From positions 2,322-66,321 of IMG/VR virus record IMGVR_UViG_2529292920_000018: DNA of 64,000 bases; one strand, written 5' to 3'. Origin of the DNA: a virus. Its lineage: Duplodnaviria; Heunggongvirae; Uroviricota; Caudoviricetes. The translations under genes were made by a program, and so were the position numbers. Of this stretch, positions 4,256-29,700 are shown piece after piece. The notes beneath the pieces were generated by a model. It ran no database searches. It was not told where the DNA came from and worked only from the letters and a program-made list of their open reading frames with translations. Every line of letters starts with the position of its first letter. The stretch's first letter is position 1.

Positions 4256-5136
4256 ACACTCCTCGTCAGTATTCTGGCGGCCATTGCACTTAATCCCGGA
4301 GACATGCGGTTGAATGCTGTGCCGGCGGCGTTAAGCTGCCCGGAAACGGTATCCAGAGCACCTGCAATATTTCTTTTGTCCACACCACTCAGCGCAGACT
4401 GTGCCTGCTGTACATACGTGGCTGCTTCGCTGGCTGTTCTGGCCAGACTGATGGCATCGGGCATGGATTCAGAGAGTGCGTTAAACGCCGGAACACTTTT
4501 CCCCAGAGCCCCGGAGATATTACCCAGTCCGCTCATCAGCCCCGGCACACGGGTCAGTGCGACAACGGGGTTATCCTTCATTTTCTGTGTCACCCGAACG
4601 GCGCTGATAGTGGTCTGGAGTACAGACTGCGCCTGTTTCGCATAGTTGACGCCGTTGCGGATGAACTGCGCCACCCCTGAAGGTGAAGGTATGGCACCGG
4701 AGACCGCCCCGACACCCGGGAGCTTCGTGCGTATTGCCGGTGGTTGCAGAGGATTTTTCGGGTCACCGGTGTATTCCCGGAGAGACACGGTGGCACTGAC
4801 AGCCAGCACGTTGCCGGTACTGTCAGTCTGCTCGCTGGTTGCAGTCACATCGGTAATCACGAACCAGCCGCGATAGTCACCGTTGCCGAAGACCAGCGCC
4901 AGTGCCTGATGGGCTTTCATGGCTGTTCGCAGTCTCGCCAGCTCCACATCGGGTACACAATAATGCTGATGGAAAACCAGAGTTATCTGGATTTCGTCCA
5001 GCCTGTCGCCGACGAACTGCAGGCCAGGCTTACCCCCGATGCGGGCATGCTCCGCATAATCGACGCCGAACGTGGCCTCGAAGCCGTCCCAGTAGGTAAT
5101 CAGCTCAAACTCAATATCACCCAGTACGGCAAACAT
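4252..5136 (-). CDS. tail protein (gpU / Mu N DNA-circulation-like)
   Basis: 294-aa ORF immediately downstream of tape measure, in the position of Mu N / P2 U. Confidence 0.5.
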   Translation of the reverse strand: MFAVLGDIEFELITYWDGFEATFGVDYAEHARIGGKPGLQFVGDRLDEIQITLVFHQHYCVPDVELARLRTAMKAHQALALVFGNGDYRGWFVITDVTATSEQTDSTGNVLAVSATVSLREYTGDPKNPLQPPAIRTKLPGVGAVSGAIPSPSGVAQFIRNGVNYAKQAQSVLQTTISAVRVTQKMKDNPVVALTRVPGLMSGLGNISGALGKSVPAFNALSESMPDAISLARTASEAATYVQQAQSALSGVDKRNIAGALDTVSGQLNAAGTAFNRMSPGLSAMAARILTRSV

Positions 5137-9483: not shown

Positions 9484-10910
9484 CAGTTGCCCCCTTTCAG
9501 GGTTAACAGGTATTCCGAGGTGATCTCAGTCTCAAACGTCAGTCGCTCCAGCGGCGGTGGTGGCGTATATTTGTAGCTCAGCAACAGGTGCCCGGCGGCC
9601 AGCTCCGTCTCCGGATTGCGGGCCGGATCAAACCAGCAACGGAAGCCCAGTACCGCACCATCACCAGTCATTTTGCGACCGTAGGCGTTGACCGACTCCG
9701 TCAGTGCATCAATCAGCGCCTGAGTAATCGGCATGTCGATGTACTGCTGGCTGAAATAACGAATGGACTCGTTGATCACATCACCGGTGCGGCGAACGTT
9801 CTCAAAGTTACGCATATGGGTGACCGTTGGCCATGCTGCCGTCCGGTTACCCCACAGACGAAGGCCGCTGCCGTAACTGCTGAATACCGTGGTGATCCCC
9901 TGTTCGTTAAGCAGGTTCACCTCACTCTGCGGGTCATCAATCATCGCGGACAGCTGGCGCTCCACGCCGGTGATCCCCAGAATCTCCTGATTGGAGGATG
10001 ACCACCAGTAGCCCTTGTCCAGATCGACTCTGGCACGCAGACCTGCTGCACGCTGGCTGAGCGGCTCCAGACGCTCTGTGTTTGTCACCGGGTCATATAC
10101 CTTCACATGCGGATAGCACAGACGGACGCGGTCGGAGCTGGTATTGAAGTTGATGGTGCCTTCCGGGCCACGACCTGCCAGAGCCTGTGCAAAGGTGGTA
10201 CCGACAGGCGCATCAATGTAGGTTACCGCGCCCAGCTTCTCTGCCATGGCGATAAGCTCAACTGCGACACTCTTCTGGGTGCAGAACACCGGCGCAATCA
10301 GAATTTTGGCGAAATAGCCGTACAGGTTGAAGCTGTCGTTAAGCAGCTTCATGCCGGTTCGGTTTCCGGCGCTGTTCACCCCGCCGATGATGTCCGCCGC
10401 AGTCACCTTCGACGGGTCCGCGTACTCATAGCTCACCTTCACGCTGCCACCGGCCTCAATAGCCTTGCCCAGGTTCGTGAGCACACCCGCCTGCGCATCA
10501 ACACGGTAGTCCGTGTTCGCCGTGTGGGTGGTGCTGCCTTCACTGTTTTTCACCACCACATTAGCGACAACCGGATGCGCCAGTCTGGCCTGCCCTGTCG
10601 ATTTGTCAAAGGTAACCACCTCATCCTCGATCGCCGTTTTATGTTTCGCCGGGTCGAGGACGTTAATGACCAGAACGGTGCCTGCACCATGGTCATAAAT
10701 CGCATCCAGCGCCTGCGGAATGGTAAAGCCGGTGAACTGGCTGCCAAATGCCGCTGCGTCTTTCTCAGACAGGCACTGTACCAGCGTATTGACATCCCCC
10801 ATCGGGGCGGTACCAATCAGGCCAATAACGGCAGATTTCACCGTTTTAACCGGGCGGGCTCCGTTTTCCACCTCAATGGTTTCGGGACCATGCAGATAGT
10901 TAGCTGCCAT
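9483..10910 (-). CDS. contractile tail sheath protein
   Basis: 475-aa ORF; size and position typical of a tail sheath. Confidence 0.85.
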   Translation of the reverse strand: MAANYLHGPETIEVENGARPVKTVKSAVIGLIGTAPMGDVNTLVQCLSEKDAAAFGSQFTGFTIPQALDAIYDHGAGTVLVINVLDPAKHKTAIEDEVVTFDKSTGQARLAHPVVANVVVKNSEGSTTHTANTDYRVDAQAGVLTNLGKAIEAGGSVKVSYEYADPSKVTAADIIGGVNSAGNRTGMKLLNDSFNLYGYFAKILIAPVFCTQKSVAVELIAMAEKLGAVTYIDAPVGTTFAQALAGRGPEGTINFNTSSDRVRLCYPHVKVYDPVTNTERLEPLSQRAAGLRARVDLDKGYWWSSSNQEILGITGVERQLSAMIDDPQSEVNLLNEQGITTVFSSYGSGLRLWGNRTAAWPTVTHMRNFENVRRTGDVINESIRYFSQQYIDMPITQALIDALTESVNAYGRKMTGDGAVLGFRCWFDPARNPETELAAGHLLLSYKYTPPPPLERLTFETEITSEYLLTLKGGN

Positions 10911-23609: not shown

Positions 23610-24374
23610 ATGAAAATGCAGACATTACCCATCGTGCCGTGGATTGGTGGCAAACGCCGCCTTGCAAAACACATTCTGCCGCTGTTTCCGGCGCATGAAT
23701 GTTATGTGGAGCCGTTTTGTGGGGCAGCAGCGCTCTATTTTCTTAAGACACCCGGCAAGATCGAAGTCATCAATGATATCAACGGTGAACTGGTGAATCT
23801 GTACCGGGTGGTAAAGCATCACCTGGAAGAATTTGTCCGCCAGTTCAAATGGGCGCTGGTCAGCCGTCAGATCTACAAATGGCTGCAGATCACCCCGGAA
23901 GAAACACTGACGGATATCCAGCGTGCGGCACGGTTCTACTACCTTCAGAAGCAGGCGTTTGGCGGCAAGGTGGCAGAGCACAGCTTCGGTACCTCCACCA
24001 CATCCCCGCCACGCTTCAACCTGCTACGTATTGAAGAAGAACTGTCAGCGGCACACCTGCGGCTTTCCAGAACAGTCATAGAACACATGGACTGGCAACA
24101 GTGCATTGAGCGTTATGATCGTCCGCACACGCTGTTCTACTGCGACCCACCGTACCTGGGTACGGAAGGCTATGGTGTGGATTTTCCTGAAGGGAACTAC
24201 TCGCGGCTGGCAGAGCTGGCCCGGTGCATCAGAGGAAAAATGATAATTTCGGTGAACGACATCCCGCAGATGCGCGAGGTGTTCACTGGACTGAACATAC
24301 AGACAGTGAATATCAACTACAGTCTGGCGGGTAAACCCACGCCGCGCCGTGAACTGCTAATCTGCAACTTCTGA
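23610..24374 (+). CDS. dam: DNA adenine methyltransferase (Dam / D12 class)
   Basis: DPPY catalytic motif and FCGAAALYF SAM-binding motif; start set at ATG 23610 (MKMQTLPIVPW). Confidence 0.85.
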   Translation: MKMQTLPIVPWIGGKRRLAKHILPLFPAHECYVEPFCGAAALYFLKTPGKIEVINDINGELVNLYRVVKHHLEEFVRQFKWALVSRQIYKWLQITPEETLTDIQRAARFYYLQKQAFGGKVAEHSFGTSTTSPPRFNLLRIEEELSAAHLRLSRTVIEHMDWQQCIERYDRPHTLFYCDPPYLGTEGYGVDFPEGNYSRLAELARCIRGKMIISVNDIPQMREVFTGLNIQTVNINYSLAGKPTPRRELLICNF

Positions 24375-24381
24375 AACAAAA

Positions 24382-24404
24382 CCGGAAAGCACAATGCTTT
24401 CCGG
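24382..24404 (-). terminator. perfect 10-bp-stem hairpin, possible bidirectional terminator
   Basis: CCGGAAAGCA-CAA-TGCTTTCCGG; T-tract follows on the minus strand only. Confidence 0.4.
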
Positions 24405-24490
24405 TAAACCAAACAACTTCCACTATGTCACTGGCGATGTTTTCTGAAAGCATCCAGATCAACCACCTGTCCTTTGTGTCCGGGTCAGTA

Positions 24491-24847
24491 TCAGCCTGCG
24501 ATTTTTCCTGGTTTTGGCTGAGTATAGAATCGCCCAATCTCAAGAAATGAGCGTTGTTGGTCTGGTGTCATGTCGTCAAAAGTATCTATTAGTTTTTGTT
24601 TTTCTGGGGAAATTTGATTCTGGTTTCTAGTCATACCATCTGTGCTCATTCCAGTGAGCAACCAATTTACATCAACATTAAACTCTTGATGCATCTTTAA
24701 CAGAAACTCCCCTCCAGGCATCGCCTTTCCATTTTCAATCTGACTGATACCACCATTAGAAATACCTAAACGAGCTGCAAATTCTCTCTGGTTCAACCCT
24801 GCTTTCTTCCTCACAGAAATAACGCGCTCTCCTATATCTTTGCTCAT
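24491..24847 (-). CDS. phage repressor, XRE-family HTH
   Basis: HTH motif QREFAARLGISNGGISQIENGK; divergent from ner. Confidence 0.75.
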   Translation of the reverse strand: MSKDIGERVISVRKKAGLNQREFAARLGISNGGISQIENGKAMPGGEFLLKMHQEFNVDVNWLLTGMSTDGMTRNQNQISPEKQKLIDTFDDMTPDQQRSFLEIGRFYTQPKPGKIAG

Positions 24848-24870
24848 AAAAGTGAATCTCTATCTTGATA

Positions 24871-24888
24871 TGCTCATAATTATGAGCA
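24871..24888. promoter_or_regulatory. putative operator: perfect 18-bp palindrome
   Basis: TGCTCATAATTATGAGCA between TTGATA (24865..24870) and AATAAT (24888..24893); half-site TGCTCATAA repeated at 24841..24849 over the repressor start. Confidence 0.5.
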
Positions 24889-24940
24889 ATAATCTAACAC
24901 ATATAAGGCAAACATCATTGCATCAACAAAGGAGACAACG

Positions 24941-25129
24941 ATGACTGCAGAACAAGTCAAAGCTCTCTTCCGCCAGCGCGGGATCACTTTCACCCGCTGG
25001 GCAGAAGAAAACGGCTACAACCGCAATGAGGTATACCGCGTTCTCAACGGGCAGACCAAAGCCCGTTACGGTAAATCCCATGAAATCGCCGTGAAGTTGG
25101 GACTGAAATCAACAGCTCAGGCGGCCTAA
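24941..25129 (+). CDS. ner: Ner-like DNA-binding regulator
   Basis: 62-aa HTH protein, first gene of rightward early operon. Confidence 0.6.
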   Translation: MTAEQVKALFRQRGITFTRWAEENGYNRNEVYRVLNGQTKARYGKSHEIAVKLGLKSTAQAA

Positions 25130-25175
25130 ATATTTTGAGTCTTTGTAAAAGGTTATCACATATCGCAAAAGAGGT

Positions 25176-25490
25176 ATGCAGATGAGTAAGACGAATGTTT
25201 CAAGCTCCGGCAGTCGCATCCTCCGGGTACTCAAAGCGCTGCGCGGTCATGCCCTGAACGGTATTTCTAACGGTGAACTGGCGACAGCACTGCACGAGTC
25301 ACCGGCAAACATCAACCGGGCACTCAACACCCTCATTGAAGAAGGGCTGGCTCTGAAACTGGAGAACGGACGTTTTGCACCGGGCATCCAGTTACTGCAG
25401 ATCGCCATGGCCCACAGTAACGAGATGGCACGTGCACAGGATCGTATTAACGAAATTAACCAACGTGTCATTTCAGGTAGTCGTTTGTAA
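25176..25490 (+). CDS. hypothetical protein, possible winged-helix DNA-binding
   Basis: 104-aa ORF in early operon. Confidence 0.4.
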   Translation: MQMSKTNVSSSGSRILRVLKALRGHALNGISNGELATALHESPANINRALNTLIEEGLALKLENGRFAPGIQLLQIAMAHSNEMARAQDRINEINQRVISGSRL

Positions 25491-25500
25491 GGAGTAATCA

Positions 25501-26421
25501 ATGGGACGTACCAAATCACCGATTAACACTGAACTGAACGCCGATGTACCGCTGTCGGATGATCTCAACGTCAGCCTGAATGCCATGACACAGCATCGCA
25601 TGGAGATCATGCAGCAGTTTGGTGATGGACTGCCTTATGAACGTGAACGCATCGTTCACGAAGCACGTTTTTATATGGCGCAGAGTGCTGAATCTATGTT
25701 GGAAGCGGGTAAGCGGCTGATCATCTTAAAAGAAAATGAACCGCATGGTGATTTCACAAATATTCTGGAAAACGACCTCGGATTAGCACCACAGGTAGCT
25801 CGTCGCATGATGCAGGCCAGCGTGAAATTTCTCGGCAATGGAGATGAACAGCCAAAACGCTCAGCGCTGAGCGTTTTGGGAAAAACCAAGTTATATGAAC
25901 TGATGGTTCTGGATGACGAAGAACTCGACGCATTAGCTGATGGTGGAACCGTCGCCGGTGCAACGCTTGATGATATTGATCGCATGACCAGCCGCGAACT
26001 GAAGGCCGCCCTGCGTGAAGCGCGCGAAACCAACGCAGCTCAGCAACAGGTGCTTGCCGGAAAGGACGAAAAAATCAACGAACTGGCCACAAAACTGGAG
26101 AAGAAATCGCGCCTGCAACCTCCGCCGCCAGACGAAGAACTGAAAAAATTGCGGGCGGAAGTGACGGCATTAGCGGTTGAGGCCGAATCGGCTATCGCCG
26201 TCCGGCTGTCCAGTGTTTTTGAGACCCTGTGTGAATACTGCACCAAAAACATGATCGATACCCCCAGAGATTTCATGGCCGGTCTGGTCTGCCAGATTGA
26301 ACGCAGTGTTCATGCATTACGTGAGACGTTTGACCTTGAGGCCGCTCCATCGGGTAACGATGCCCCCGCCTGGCTGACCGAACCGGAACCTGAAATCAAC
26401 CGACCGGAGGATATGCAGTAA
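25501..26421 (+). CDS. hypothetical early protein, acidic coiled-coil
   Basis: 306-aa ORF between ner and transposase. Confidence 0.45.
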   Translation: MGRTKSPINTELNADVPLSDDLNVSLNAMTQHRMEIMQQFGDGLPYERERIVHEARFYMAQSAESMLEAGKRLIILKENEPHGDFTNILENDLGLAPQVARRMMQASVKFLGNGDEQPKRSALSVLGKTKLYELMVLDDEELDALADGGTVAGATLDDIDRMTSRELKAALREARETNAAQQQVLAGKDEKINELATKLEKKSRLQPPPPDEELKKLRAEVTALAVEAESAIAVRLSSVFETLCEYCTKNMIDTPRDFMAGLVCQIERSVHALRETFDLEAAPSGNDAPAWLTEPEPEINRPEDMQ

Positions 26422-26738
26422 TGAATACGAATAACACACAAAATACCCTGATGGACAGCCCGGAGGCACTGGGGCACGCACTGTGTAATCTGCTGCCGGA
26501 GATGGTGCAGGGTTTCCGCGTGGTGACCCCTTCCGGTGAAATCTGCGTACCCGCACAGGAGACGCACCCGTTTGTACTGACGATGGAGGTGATGCTGATG
26601 CAGCAGATAAGACGTCTGCAGAATCAGTCAGCATTACGCCCGGTAGTTGCACCGCAACCGGTAAATACCGTGGTGAAAACCTGCGATGGCGAAACACTGT
26701 GCGACCTCGCCAGAAAAATTGCCGCCAGAATCGGATAA
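26421..26738 (+). CDS. hypothetical protein
   Basis: 105-aa ORF overlapping the upstream stop (ATGA). Confidence 0.4.
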   Translation: MNTNNTQNTLMDSPEALGHALCNLLPEMVQGFRVVTPSGEICVPAQETHPFVLTMEVMLMQQIRRLQNQSALRPVVAPQPVNTVVKTCDGETLCDLARKIAARIG

Positions 26739-26753
26739 CAGGGAAGACAAGCT

Positions 26754-28523
26754 ATGACCCCGGCACTGACTGAAAAACTGGTTGAAACAGCCCGCGCGGC
26801 ACGTGACGCGGGGCATGGTAAACGCGGTGCAATATACGACGCTGCCTGTGCTGAACTTGGCATGTCCCGCGCCACTCTGCTGCGCAGGCTGAAGGAGGTA
26901 TCTGTGACTGATAAACGCAAAAAACGCGCCGATGCCGGGCGCAGCGCCCTGACCCGCGACGAAGCCGCGCTGATATCTGCCACACTGCGTGAGGCCACCC
27001 GCAAGAACGGTAAGCGTCTCTATTCCATCGCAGATGCAGTGGAAACCCTGCGGGCTAACGGCTTTATCACCGCAGGCAGAACAGATGAAACCACCGGTGA
27101 GTTTTTCCCGTTGTCTGAAGATGCCATCAGCCGTGCTCTGCGTAACTATGGCCTGCACCCGGAACAACTGGATGCCCCTGCACCACATACCGAAGTGGCC
27201 AGTCTGCATCCCAATCATGTCTGGCAGATTGACGCCTCACTCTGCACGCTTTACTACCTGAGCAATGGACATAAAGGGCTGCAGGTGATGGACAGCGCGA
27301 AGTTCTACAAGAACAAGCCCGCTAACCTTGCCCGTATCGCCAGTGACCGCGTGTGGAGTTACGAGATTACCGACCATGCCAGCGGCTGGATTTACGTTGA
27401 GTATGTGACGGGCGCGGAATCAGGTGAGAACCTGTGTTCTGTGCTTATCAACGCCATGCAGGAGCGTGGCGGCGCAGACGTGCTGCACGGCGTGCCGAAA
27501 ATACTCTATCTCGACCCCGGCTCGGCAAACACCGCGGGTATGACGAAAAACATGTGCCGCTCACTGGGCATCGACCTGATAGCGCACAAGCCGCATAACG
27601 CCCGCGCCACCGGACAGGTGGAAAAGGCGCGTGACATTATCGAACGCAAGCTGGAGCCGGGTCTGAAGTTCCGGCCGGTTCACAGTCTGGAAGAACTCAA
27701 CGCGCTGGCCGCGAAATGGCGCAGCCACTTTAACGCCACGGCTGTTCACAGCCGCCACGGTAAAACCCGCACGGATATCTGGCTGAAGATTACTGCTGAG
27801 CAGCTGAAAAAAGCGCCTTCCGTTAAGGTATGTCGTGAACTGGCTGTGGCGGCACCAGAACTCCGCAAAGTCACGCCAAAACTTCGTGTCTCGTTCCGGG
27901 GCACTGAATTTGACGTATCAACGGTACCGGGCGTACTGGTTGGTGAAAAACTGATGATTACCCGTAACCCATGGCGCAGCGATGTGGCACAGGTGGTTCT
28001 GACTGGTGAGGACGGCCACGAGACGTTCTTCCTGGTCGAAGAGGTCAGAAAGAACGAGTTTGGCTTTGCTGAAGGCGCGGCGGTATTTGGCGAAAGTTAC
28101 AAAGCCCTGCCGGAAACCCCGGCACAGATGGCGGCAAAAGAAACCGAAGCGCTGGTTACCGGTACAGACAACGCCGCAGATGCAGCCGCCGCACGCAAGG
28201 CGAAGGCGCTGCCGTTCGGCGGGCGGCTTGACCCGTATAAACATATCGACGACACCACACTTCCGGCCTATATGCCGAAGCGTGGTCAGGCCTCTGACGT
28301 ACGCGGGCCGCGCACTGAACAACGTCCCATGACTCATGTGGAGGCCGCGAAAGCCCTGCGCGATAAGTTCAGCACCGACGGCCTTACCTGGACGCCGGAA
28401 CATTACCGCCAGTTAACGGCACAGTACCCGGACGGCGTACCGGAAGCCGCACTGGATGAAGTCATGGCCACGCTGACCACACCGGCCCGCAGCAGTGTTA
28501 TCAGCATTGTTAACGGCAACTGA
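26754..28523 (+). CDS. DDE transposase (Mu A-like, integrase-core fold)
   Basis: 589-aa ORF with HVWQIDASL and YLDPGSANT catalytic-core-like motifs; followed by an AAA+ target-selection ATPase. Confidence 0.8.
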   Translation: MTPALTEKLVETARAARDAGHGKRGAIYDAACAELGMSRATLLRRLKEVSVTDKRKKRADAGRSALTRDEAALISATLREATRKNGKRLYSIADAVETLRANGFITAGRTDETTGEFFPLSEDAISRALRNYGLHPEQLDAPAPHTEVASLHPNHVWQIDASLCTLYYLSNGHKGLQVMDSAKFYKNKPANLARIASDRVWSYEITDHASGWIYVEYVTGAESGENLCSVLINAMQERGGADVLHGVPKILYLDPGSANTAGMTKNMCRSLGIDLIAHKPHNARATGQVEKARDIIERKLEPGLKFRPVHSLEELNALAAKWRSHFNATAVHSRHGKTRTDIWLKITAEQLKKAPSVKVCRELAVAAPELRKVTPKLRVSFRGTEFDVSTVPGVLVGEKLMITRNPWRSDVAQVVLTGEDGHETFFLVEEVRKNEFGFAEGAAVFGESYKALPETPAQMAAKETEALVTGTDNAADAAAARKAKALPFGGRLDPYKHIDDTTLPAYMPKRGQASDVRGPRTEQRPMTHVEAAKALRDKFSTDGLTWTPEHYRQLTAQYPDGVPEAALDEVMATLTTPARSSVISIVNGN

Positions 28524-28533
28524 GGAGGGAAAC

Positions 28534-29700
28534 ATGCTGGTACTGAAGCAGCAACTGAAAGAGGCCCGTATTCCACAGGCGGTGGTGGCGAGAGCTGTCG
28601 ATGTTTCTGAGGCCACGCTGGCCCAGATTGTGAATCATAACGCGTGGCCCCGCACCAGCCCCGGAGAAGTGCGCCGGCGTCTTGCGTCCTGGCTGGAAAG
28701 TCAGGGGATTGATACAACGAAGAGTTTTGATGCTGTACAGGGCGCGGCCACGCCCCGTACAGCGGGTACCACAGATAAAACGAGCCTCAGTGAGGAAGAG
28801 AATATGTTACTCAAAAAACAGGTGTTATTTCCAGCAACCAAAAAAGCGTTTGGTCTTTTCCGTGACCCGTTCGCCGACGAAGCCATGCAGGGTTCTGATG
28901 ATGTGTTCACCACCCCGGATATTCGCTACGTGCGTGAGGCGTTGTACCAGACAGCCCGTCATGGTGGGTTTATGGCCGTCATCGGTGAGTCCGGTGCGGG
29001 TAAATCCACGCTGCGCCGCGACCTGACTGAACGTATCAACCGCGAGAATGCGCCGGTAATTGTTATCGAGCCATACATCATCGCTATGGAAGACAACGAT
29101 GTGAAAGGGAAAACCCTGAAGGCAGCAGCGATTGCCGAAGCCATTATCAGTACCATCGCACCACTGGAAAGCATCAGACGCAGTCAGGACGCCCGCTTTC
29201 GCCAGTTGCATCGCGTCCTGAAAGACAGCAGCCAGGCGGGGTTCAGCCACGTTCTGGTGATTGAGGAGGCCCACAGTCTGCCCATTCCGACACTGAAACA
29301 CCTCAAACGCTTTTTTGAGCTGGAGTCCGGTTTCAAAAAACTGCTGTCCATCGTGCTGATTGGCCAGCCGGAACTGGCGACAAAACTGTCTGAACGCAAT
29401 ATGGAAGTCCGTGAAGTCGTTCAGCGCTGTGAGGTGGTCGAACTTCTGCCTCTGGACAATAACCTTGAAGAGTTTCTGACGTTCAAACTGCAACGGGCCG
29501 GTAAACAACTGACGGACATTATGGACGCCAGCGCAGTGGATGCCATACGTGCCCGCCTGAGCAATCCGGGAAGTCATCGTAAAAATATGGTCAGCCTGCT
29601 GTATCCGCTGGCCGTCAGTAACCTGGTAATAGCCGCCATGAATCTGGCCGCTGAAATCGGGGTTCCACAGGTCAACGCTGACGTTGTCAAAGGGGTTTAA
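28534..29700 (+). CDS. transposition ATPase (Mu B / TniB-like AAA+)
   Basis: Walker A GESGAGKST, Walker B VLVIEEAH; start at ATG 28534 with GGAGG upstream. Confidence 0.8.
   Translation: MLVLKQQLKEARIPQAVVARAVDVSEATLAQIVNHNAWPRTSPGEVRRRLASWLESQGIDTTKSFDAVQGAATPRTAGTTDKTSLSEEENMLLKKQVLFPATKKAFGLFRDPFADEAMQGSDDVFTTPDIRYVREALYQTARHGGFMAVIGESGAGKSTLRRDLTERINRENAPVIVIEPYIIAMEDNDVKGKTLKAAAIAEAIISTIAPLESIRRSQDARFRQLHRVLKDSSQAGFSHVLVIEEAHSLPIPTLKHLKRFFELESGFKKLLSIVLIGQPELATKLSERNMEVREVVQRCEVVELLPLDNNLEEFLTFKLQRAGKQLTDIMDASAVDAIRARLSNPGSHRKNMVSLLYPLAVSNLVIAAMNLAAEIGVPQVNADVVKGV

Follow-up and report, generated by a model that had tools for sequence, protein, structure and literature searches.

In a 64,000-nucleotide stretch of DNA from a virus of the Caudoviricetes (positions 2,322 to 66,321 of IMG/VR record IMGVR_UViG_2529292920_000018; hereafter, the window), we found a palindrome, O1, that very probably serves as the primary operator of a 118-amino-acid repressor and occludes the early promoter, Pe, with two further sites, O2 and O3, probably assisting. 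The window is 100% identical to Escherichia phage PhiKM, a Bcepmuvirus from uropathogenic E. coli, and contains the hallmark genes of BcepMu/B3-like phages (the gp16 family, DUF3102, a DDE transposase, an ExeA-like ATPase and Gam). The element is a BcepMu/B3-like transposable prophage, and the region described here is its immunity and early region, which lies mid-prophage, between divergent arms. A search of 5,426 complete E. coli genomes found the prophage in 390 at an identity of at least 99%, among them an O25b:H4-ST131 strain. In the searchable literature, we found no published operator mapping for BcepMu/B3-like phages, and nothing on PhiKM or on Mu-like prophages of ST131.

In the mechanism that we propose, a repressor dimer would read the hexamers TGCTCA and TGAGCA across a non-contacted, A/T-rich centre of 6 bp. 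Because O1 takes up the whole spacer between the -35 and -10 boxes, repressor bound there would keep RNA polymerase off Pe (promoter occlusion). This occlusion would silence the Ner-like gp16 protein, an IclR-like regulator, a DUF3102 protein, the transposase and a MuB-like ATPase, and the prophage would stay quiescent. O2 and O3 would probably help by cooperative binding or by looping via the two-helix C-terminal domain of the repressor, and negative autoregulation would result. We infer binding, promoter occlusion, cooperativity or looping, and autoregulation from the anatomy of the region, its conservation, its co-variation and the fold similarity of the repressor. By inference, there is good support for repression of the early promoter. 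Autoregulation, raised as a possibility in a preliminary description of the window, is plausible because the repressor gene has O2 at its start and O3 within it; the repressor promoter, however, was not found.

A palindrome in the spacer of the early promoter

The repressor gene and the Ner-like gene are divergent, and the intergenic region between them is 93 bp long and 68% A+T. It contains TGCTCATAATTATGAGCA, a perfect 18-bp palindrome that is unique in the window even when three mismatches are allowed. The preliminary description had this palindrome filling the spacer between TTGATA and AATAAT. The palindrome and both hexamers are as described, but the spacer is 17 bp rather than 18: the palindrome covers the spacer and runs one base further, its last A being the first base of the -10 box. 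Pe matches 10 of 12 consensus positions, and no other sigma-70-like promoter was found on either strand of 24300-26800. The early transcript is predicted to start near 24899-24901. In most relatives, 47 nt separate the end of the -10 box (CATAAT, AATAAT or TATAAT) from the ATG. The features of the region are collected in Table 1.

Table 1. Features of the immunity and early region, in order of position in the window
Feature	Position	Strand	Description and basis
Terminator-like hairpin	24381-24405	-	11-bp stem with 6 G-C pairs, then a T-run; between convergent dam and c
Repressor gene c, 118 amino acids	24491-24847	-	HTH_3 (434/P22-c2-like) N-terminal domain, linker, two-helix C-terminal domain
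O3, putative intragenic operator	24643-24660		TGCTCA-TTCCAG-TGAGCA; 228 bp from O1; repressor codons Leu63-Thr69
O2, putative weaker operator	24841-24858		TGCTCA-TAAAAG-TGAATC; perfect left half; 30 bp from O1; over repressor start codon 24845-24847
-10-like hexamer GAGATT, speculative	24855-24860	-	7 nt upstream of the repressor ATG; without a recognisable -35
Pe -35 box TTGATA	24865-24870	+	consensus scan; -35-like hexamer at same position in relatives of all immunity types
O1, putative main operator	24871-24888		TGCTCA-TAATTA-TGAGCA in the Pe spacer; outer hexamers kept in same-type loci, swapped in heteroimmune relatives
Pe -10 box AATAAT	24888-24893	+	consensus scan; 17-bp spacer after the -35
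Early transcript leader	24894-24940	+	ATCTAACACATATAAGGCAAACATCATTGCATCAACAAAGGAGACAACG; Shine-Dalgarno AAGGAG at 24929-24934; nearly identical across immunity types
First early gene, Ner-like small DNA-binding protein, 62 amino acids	24941-25129	+	BcepMu gp16 family
Rest of early operon	25176-29700	+	IclR-like winged helix-turn-helix protein, DUF3102 protein, small open reading frame, DDE transposase, MuB-like AAA+ ATPase

We compared the region with about 100 related loci. Repressors of the same type share the recognition helix IS(N/S)GGISQIE; their ten diverged loci, with 50-78% protein identity, come from E. coli, Klebsiella, Salmonella, Serratia, Symbiopectobacterium, a metagenome-assembled genome of Accumulibacter, and several viral and metagenomic contigs. 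Between these repressor genes, synonymous sites are saturated. We found that all ten loci carry TGCTCA-N6-TGAGCA without a mismatch, set flush between a -35 and a -10 box. The gene that follows makes no difference: it may be gp16-like, Mor-like (L009, L095) or, in L093, a true HTH_35 Ner. The centre, by comparison, takes the forms TAATTA, TTATTG, AAATAA, TAATAA and TTTAAT: it remains A/T-rich, and complementarity is not kept. Because the outer hexamers are invariant and the centre varies without complementarity, the functional unit appears to be the 6-N6-6 arrangement, read as sequence and not as a hairpin, with the perfect 18-mer as one instance of it.

The converse pattern is seen in heteroimmune relatives. 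In six such loci from E. coli (L002-L007), the Ner-like gene and the leader are almost unchanged, whereas the N-terminal domain of the repressor and the spacer sequence differ. The clearest case is L002: its Ner-like protein is 100% identical to that of the window, yet its spacer is unrelated in sequence and holds a different repeat. Compared base by base with the window, L002 diverges in a single block that runs from about 24490 (the repressor stop codon) to about 24890 (the -10 box), with flanks that are 95-100% identical. The same design extends across the family. In 62 non-redundant regions upstream of gp16-like genes, taken from IMG/VR, the -35 box, 17-bp spacer and -10 box keep their geometry and stand at a constant distance from the ATG, and each immunity type has its own dyad in the spacer, for example TGTCTAA-N4-TTAGACA, TATACAC-N4-GTGTATA, ATGAGAAC-N4-GTTCTCAT, TATCCCA-N4-TGGGATA or TGTGAT-N6-ATCACA. 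All 21 distinct spacers with standard geometry, which represent seven operator types, carry a dyad of outer hexamers at no fewer than 5 of 6 positions, and 15 of the 21 carry it at 6 of 6; at random positions in the same loci, the corresponding frequencies are 8.9% and 1.4%. Since an identical Ner-like protein accompanies a different dyad, and since the dyad is kept wherever this type of repressor occurs, we conclude from co-variation that O1 belongs to the repressor and not to the Ner-like protein.

Experimental work on a relative bears on the early promoter. When a temperature-sensitive repressor of the B3-like phage Fc02 is inactivated by heat, transcription surges from pE, which lies upstream of ner, and continues through the transposase genes (PMC9936078). 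The assignment of Pe is supported by this result, because derepression in Fc02 fires the promoter upstream of a homologous ner-like gene. The earlier proposal that the early promoter is repressed through an operator in its spacer thus agrees both with all of the comparative evidence and with derepression in Fc02.

Three other explanations of the palindrome deserve weighing. A role as the binding site of the Ner-like (Cro-like) gp16 protein, or as a site shared by Ner and the repressor in the manner of the lambda Cro/CI operators, would suit a palindrome that lies directly upstream of the gp16 gene in a divergent region, all the more as gp16 is a small helix-turn-helix (HTH) protein. In Mu itself, Ner acts in the divergent region. 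We nevertheless consider this assignment very unlikely: identical gp16 proteins face unrelated spacers in L002 and the window, O1 persists beside a Mor-like gene or a true HTH_35 Ner, and the constant partner of gp16 is the leader at 24894-24940 rather than the spacer. A hairpin, formed either in RNA, within a repressor transcript reading through, or as a cruciform, would likewise explain a perfect inverted repeat, which a repressor transcript starting upstream would include. Yet pairing at the centre is lost in variants such as TTATTG and AAATAA while the arms are invariant, with no compensatory change; there is no T-run and no Rfam match in 24300-26500; and the site lies upstream of the predicted Pe start. 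We give a nucleic-acid hairpin in place of a protein site scarcely any credence.

Chance, finally, must be considered for any palindrome in an A/T-rich promoter spacer. Within 64 kb, the palindrome alone is unremarkable: perfect palindromes with arms of at least 9 are expected 0.28 times per shuffled window, 25% of shuffles contain at least one, and the A+T content of the intergenic region would suit a repeat without a specific ligand. The palindrome goes beyond chance, however, because it is placed flush in the promoter spacer of a 93-bp intergenic region and is conserved in relatives. All 12 outer positions are kept in ten lineages whose synonymous sites are saturated, the motif recurs twice nearby, and dyads are enriched family-wide at exactly this place. 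A chance origin is almost certainly wrong, and we retain the reading of O1 as the operator of the repressor.

The repressor and two further sites

The repressor belongs to the HTH_3 family (PF01381; 55.8 bits against a cut-off of 23). In a phmmer search of PDB sequences, it matched the 434 repressor (E = 3e-8) and also P22 c2; to full-length SinR the match by sequence was weak (E = 2.6e-4). An AlphaFold (AF2) model, with a pLDDT (predicted local distance difference test) of 83, comprises a five-helix HTH domain, a disordered linker at about residues 65-79 and a two-helix C-terminal hairpin. The N-terminal domain of the model superposes at 1.1 A on the P22 c2-operator complex, whose operator is 18 bp, and at 1.4 A on the 434 repressor. 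The best full-length fold matches of the model were SinR and the Phi106 repressor. The 118-amino-acid protein has no Peptidase_S24 match in Pfam, and the model contains only two C-terminal helices. RecA-driven self-cleavage is not expected, since the S24 autocleavage domain is lacking and the two-helix tail is short. Used alone, the C-terminal domain found no match in a sequence search of solved structures. In RefSeq genomes, the protein is annotated as WP_000031013.1. The PhiKM GenBank record (PQ738613.1; L001) leaves the repressor gene unannotated and instead carries a 41-amino-acid open reading frame on the opposite strand at 4818-4943 (about 24425-24550 in the window).

The last 40 residues of the repressor (gene part 24491-24640), which form the two helices and end in ...QPKPGKIAG, are common to heteroimmune repressors. 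In two natural chimeras (P0152 and P0161), other N-terminal domains are fused to this exact tail. The shared tail suggests a common module for oligomerisation or inactivation, as the target of an antirepressor or a protease, that may serve the whole family.

Exactly three copies of the 9-mer TGCTCATAA are present in 64 kb, and all of them lie inside 24841-24888. One, at 24841-24849, spans the start codon of the repressor gene, read as CAT on the plus strand at 24845-24847, in agreement with the preliminary description, which had placed a half-site over the repressor start codon. This copy forms part of O2. Its coding-strand hexamer, TGAGCA, is invariant in all same-type variants, including the Ser2 codon AGC and including one locus with a GTG start. 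Several other immunity types also have a second copy of their motif beside the repressor start, 29-32 bp from the spacer site. A search for further half-sites, suggested at the outset, turned up a full intragenic site that the first reading had missed: O3. At the same codons, all ten same-type variants carry O3 with at most one mismatch. In the repressor N-terminal domain, the amino acid is invariant at 31 degenerate codons; of these codons, only Leu64 CTC, inside O3, is itself unchanged; at the remaining positions synonymous sites are saturated, with 2-6 codons each. Leu63 is restricted to TTG or CTG, as the O3 motif demands. Because Leu64 CTC alone is invariant and heteroimmune repressor genes that also encode WLLTGV do so with different codons, there is good evidence that the DNA sequence of O3 is under selection at synonymous positions. 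In 434 and P22, central operator bases that are not contacted tune affinity. We would therefore expect binding to be strongest at O1, with its A/T-rich centre, and weaker at O3, whose centre contains G/C.

Other candidate copies fared less well. Sites with one or two mismatches at 10466, 24280 and 40837 were set aside, as five copies were found against 3.5 expected by chance. The site at 24280-24297 falls in the dam methylase gene, at its 3' end. It is a perfect 6-N6-6 dyad, TGTTCA-CTGGAC-TGAACA, that differs from the operator consensus by C-to-T in both halves. It was not found in L094 or L095, where the same type of repressor stands beside a methylase gene, and is probably due to chance.

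The only rival with real weight is a single-operator switch, in which O1 alone is an operator and the conservation of O2 and O3 reflects constraint on coding and translation start, with neither autoregulation nor a loop. Several observations fit it: the left half of O2 coincides with the Met-Ser codons, O3 encodes LLTG, a very common motif at the end of HTH domains, and most other immunity types yielded no distal intragenic site: our search for O3-like sites there gave one weak candidate only (the TATACAC type, at -260) and nothing general. Coding constraint does not, however, account well for the codon pattern at Leu63 and Leu64, for the other codons used in heteroimmune WLLTGV genes, for an invariant Ser2 AGC and a hexamer that persists despite a change of start from ATG to GTG, or for the second site about 30 bp from the spacer site in other types. 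We regard a single-operator switch as unlikely, although it is to be taken seriously, and return to the reading in which O2 and O3 assist O1.

A promoter for the repressor gene was sought as well. Consensus scans gave none on the minus strand of 24300-26800. A candidate inside O1, CTTATA-17-CATAAT, was weak and came from hand inspection. By eye, a hexamer of the form xAxxxT lies 6-7 nt before the start codon, with no Shine-Dalgarno sequence, in all nine same-type variants; we speculate that the repressor transcript is leaderless, with GAGATT as its -10 box. The lambda cI transcript is leaderless. In Fc02, the repressor is made mainly from a distal promoter, pC1, antisense to ner (PMC9936078); our scan of 24300-26800 detected no pC1-like distal repressor promoter here. 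Downstream of the repressor gene, the dam-repressor intergenic stretch that contains the terminator-like hairpin is 100% identical in the heteroimmune L002.

Several points weigh against our interpretation. The missing repressor promoter leaves the autoregulation half of it without an anchor. The right half of O2 matches at 3 of 6 positions only, and the conservation of O2 could stem from the Met-Ser codons and from signals at the 5' end. The spacing between O1 and O3 is 227-229 bp, a non-integral number of helical turns at 10.5 bp per turn. The repressors of B3 and Fc02 are lambda CI-like and unrelated in specificity, and the Fc02 work did not map operators (PMC9936078). Finally, a locus in Ca. 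Symbiopectobacterium (L010), whose repressor is 51% identical and has the same recognition helix, lacks TGCTCA-N6-TGAGCA upstream; phage early genes are missing there, and the locus may be a decayed remnant, which makes it mild counter-evidence. This locus and L011, both from a genome scan, are without phage context and were set aside as uninformative.

A more elaborate, three-site device can be put forward tentatively, as possible rather than probable. In it, a repressor oligomer would bridge O1 and O2 with O3, 228 bp away in the repressor's own codons; the resulting loop, spanning the 5' two-thirds of a repressor gene that is possibly leaderless, would silence Pe and set the level of repressor. 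The layout would be conserved from Enterobacteriaceae to Betaproteobacteria, and a swappable N-terminal domain with a common C-terminal domain would serve the whole family of transposable phages.

The early operon and a second palindrome

From gene order and from RNA sequencing in Fc02, we infer that the early genes form one operon under Pe; in the rightward gene order, the Gam gene follows the MuB-like AAA+ ATPase. For the transposase, Pfam reports the rve core only. The first gene of the operon had been called ner. That name fits its position and the habit of annotators, but not, by our profile searches, its family: the protein scores 97.4 bits against TIGR04111 BcepMu_gp16 (cut-off 34) and 17.9 bits against the Pfam Ner family HTH_35 (PF13693), under the 25-bit cut-off, and a sequence search found no match between it and solved Ner structures.

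The leader ahead of this gene is more conserved than the coding sequence that follows it. Two copies of CATCA occur in it, 8 bp apart. The leader is a candidate target of the Ner-like gp16 protein, or else a translational element. In L009 and L095, a Mor-family gene (182 amino acids, PF08765) directly follows the conserved leader, ahead of the gp16-like gene, and in L093 the first early gene encodes the true HTH_35 Ner-family protein. In the loci compared, the first early gene can be exchanged, whereas operator and promoter remain tied to the repressor.

A further palindrome lies in the DUF3102 gene (25501-26421, plus strand). At 25852-25879 we observed CCAAAACGCTCAGCGCTGAGCGTTTTGG, a perfect 28-bp palindrome present in a single copy and one of two perfect palindromes in the window with arms of at least 8. 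It stays palindromic in 19 distinct relatives even though both arms have changed, to the point that the encoded peptide differs (KRSALSVLG, KATTLSLLG, NVPTLAHLG). In this comparison, pairing holds in 96% of cells, compared with 30-50% for slid controls; both sides change in 7 of the 14 pairs, and the observed covariation score was reached in none of 500 shuffles. The flanking CAAA and TTTG, an A-run and a T-run, are invariant, and the predicted RNA fold has an energy of -22 kcal/mol (z = -3.4). By these features, the palindrome looks like a bidirectional, terminator-like hairpin. A hairpin loop does not, however, account for the symmetrical flip of the central pair (AGCGCT to AACGTT). The type of arm also tracks a variable HTH-like segment of the DUF3102 protein (residues about 85-110), encoded about 25 nt upstream, and not the IclR-like protein. 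The palindrome could thus be a site for a dimeric protein, perhaps the DUF3102 protein, a reading as live as that of a hairpin; linkage alone could yield the same tracking. A literature search found nothing on the function of DUF3102, a sequence search of solved structures gave nothing useful for it, and its AF2 model (pLDDT 51) was too low in confidence for a fold search.

Comparison with known systems

The closest parallels in protein and operator are with P22 c2 and 434. The repressor has the same HTH_3 N-terminal fold (1.1-1.4 A root-mean-square deviation, 35-41% identity); the operator is a dyad of 18 bp, the length known from P22, whose outer bases are conserved while its centre varies; operators lie across part of the lytic promoter, and the repressor gene is divergent from the first lytic gene; and the immunity module is swapped as a block between relatives. 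The differences lie in the absence here of an S24 autocleavage domain, with 118 amino acids and a short two-helix tail in total, in the placement of O1 within the spacer of one promoter rather than as three tandem sites over two promoters, and in the site within the repressor gene. The element is, moreover, transposable and not lambdoid.

In gene organisation, the region resembles the c/Pe/Ner region of Mu: a leftward repressor gene, a rightward early promoter, a small Ner-like regulator, a DDE transposase and a B-like AAA+ ATPase. In Mu, repression of Pe keeps the prophage silent. The components nevertheless differ. The repressor here is of the XRE/HTH_3 type, whereas Mu-type repressors have a domain related to the N-terminus of MuA; the "ner" gene is of the BcepMu gp16 family, below the Pfam Ner threshold; and the immunity region is in mid-prophage rather than at the left end. 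Compared with O1-O3 of Mu, which work with IHF, the operator here is a short 6-N6-6 dyad, and nothing suggests a role as a transposition enhancer. With B3 and Fc02, the element shares a Ner-like gene that is homologous at the DNA level (about 70-76% identity) and a short divergent intergenic region with a predicted pE; as set out above, their repressors are of another kind.

A distal third operator that serves looping is found with TP901-1 CI (OR, OL and OD), with the flanking sites of 186 CI and with lambda OL-OR. Here, too, two close sites and one a few hundred bp away could let an oligomer loop the DNA, but the distal site lies inside the repressor coding sequence, 228 bp off. SinR of B. 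subtilis and the Phi106 repressor, of the SPbeta-group repressor-AimX pair, resemble the repressor in their plan of XRE HTH domain, linker and short helical C-terminal domain. In SinR and the SPbeta-group repressors, the helical tail is the oligomerisation element, and a small antagonist protein acts on it. Over the full length, however, the deviation is large (10 A), the C-terminal domain alone has no sequence match, and no antagonist was identified here.

The operator TGCTCA-N6-TGAGCA, together with the limits of the swapped cassette (about 24490-24890), offers a handle for predicting which related prophages are homoimmune and which heteroimmune; with Pe, it also provides a basis for induction reporters and for engineering or curing the element. 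The switch itself is of an ordinary phage on/off type and leaves the understanding of such switches unchanged. What it adds is a case, defined by comparative genomics, of an operator placed between the -35 and -10 boxes in transposable phages whose repressors are of the XRE type and not of the Mu type. The switch appears to operate like operators of the 434/P22 class, with the gene logic of Mu c/Pe/Ner, and stands outside the Mu repressor and Ner families.

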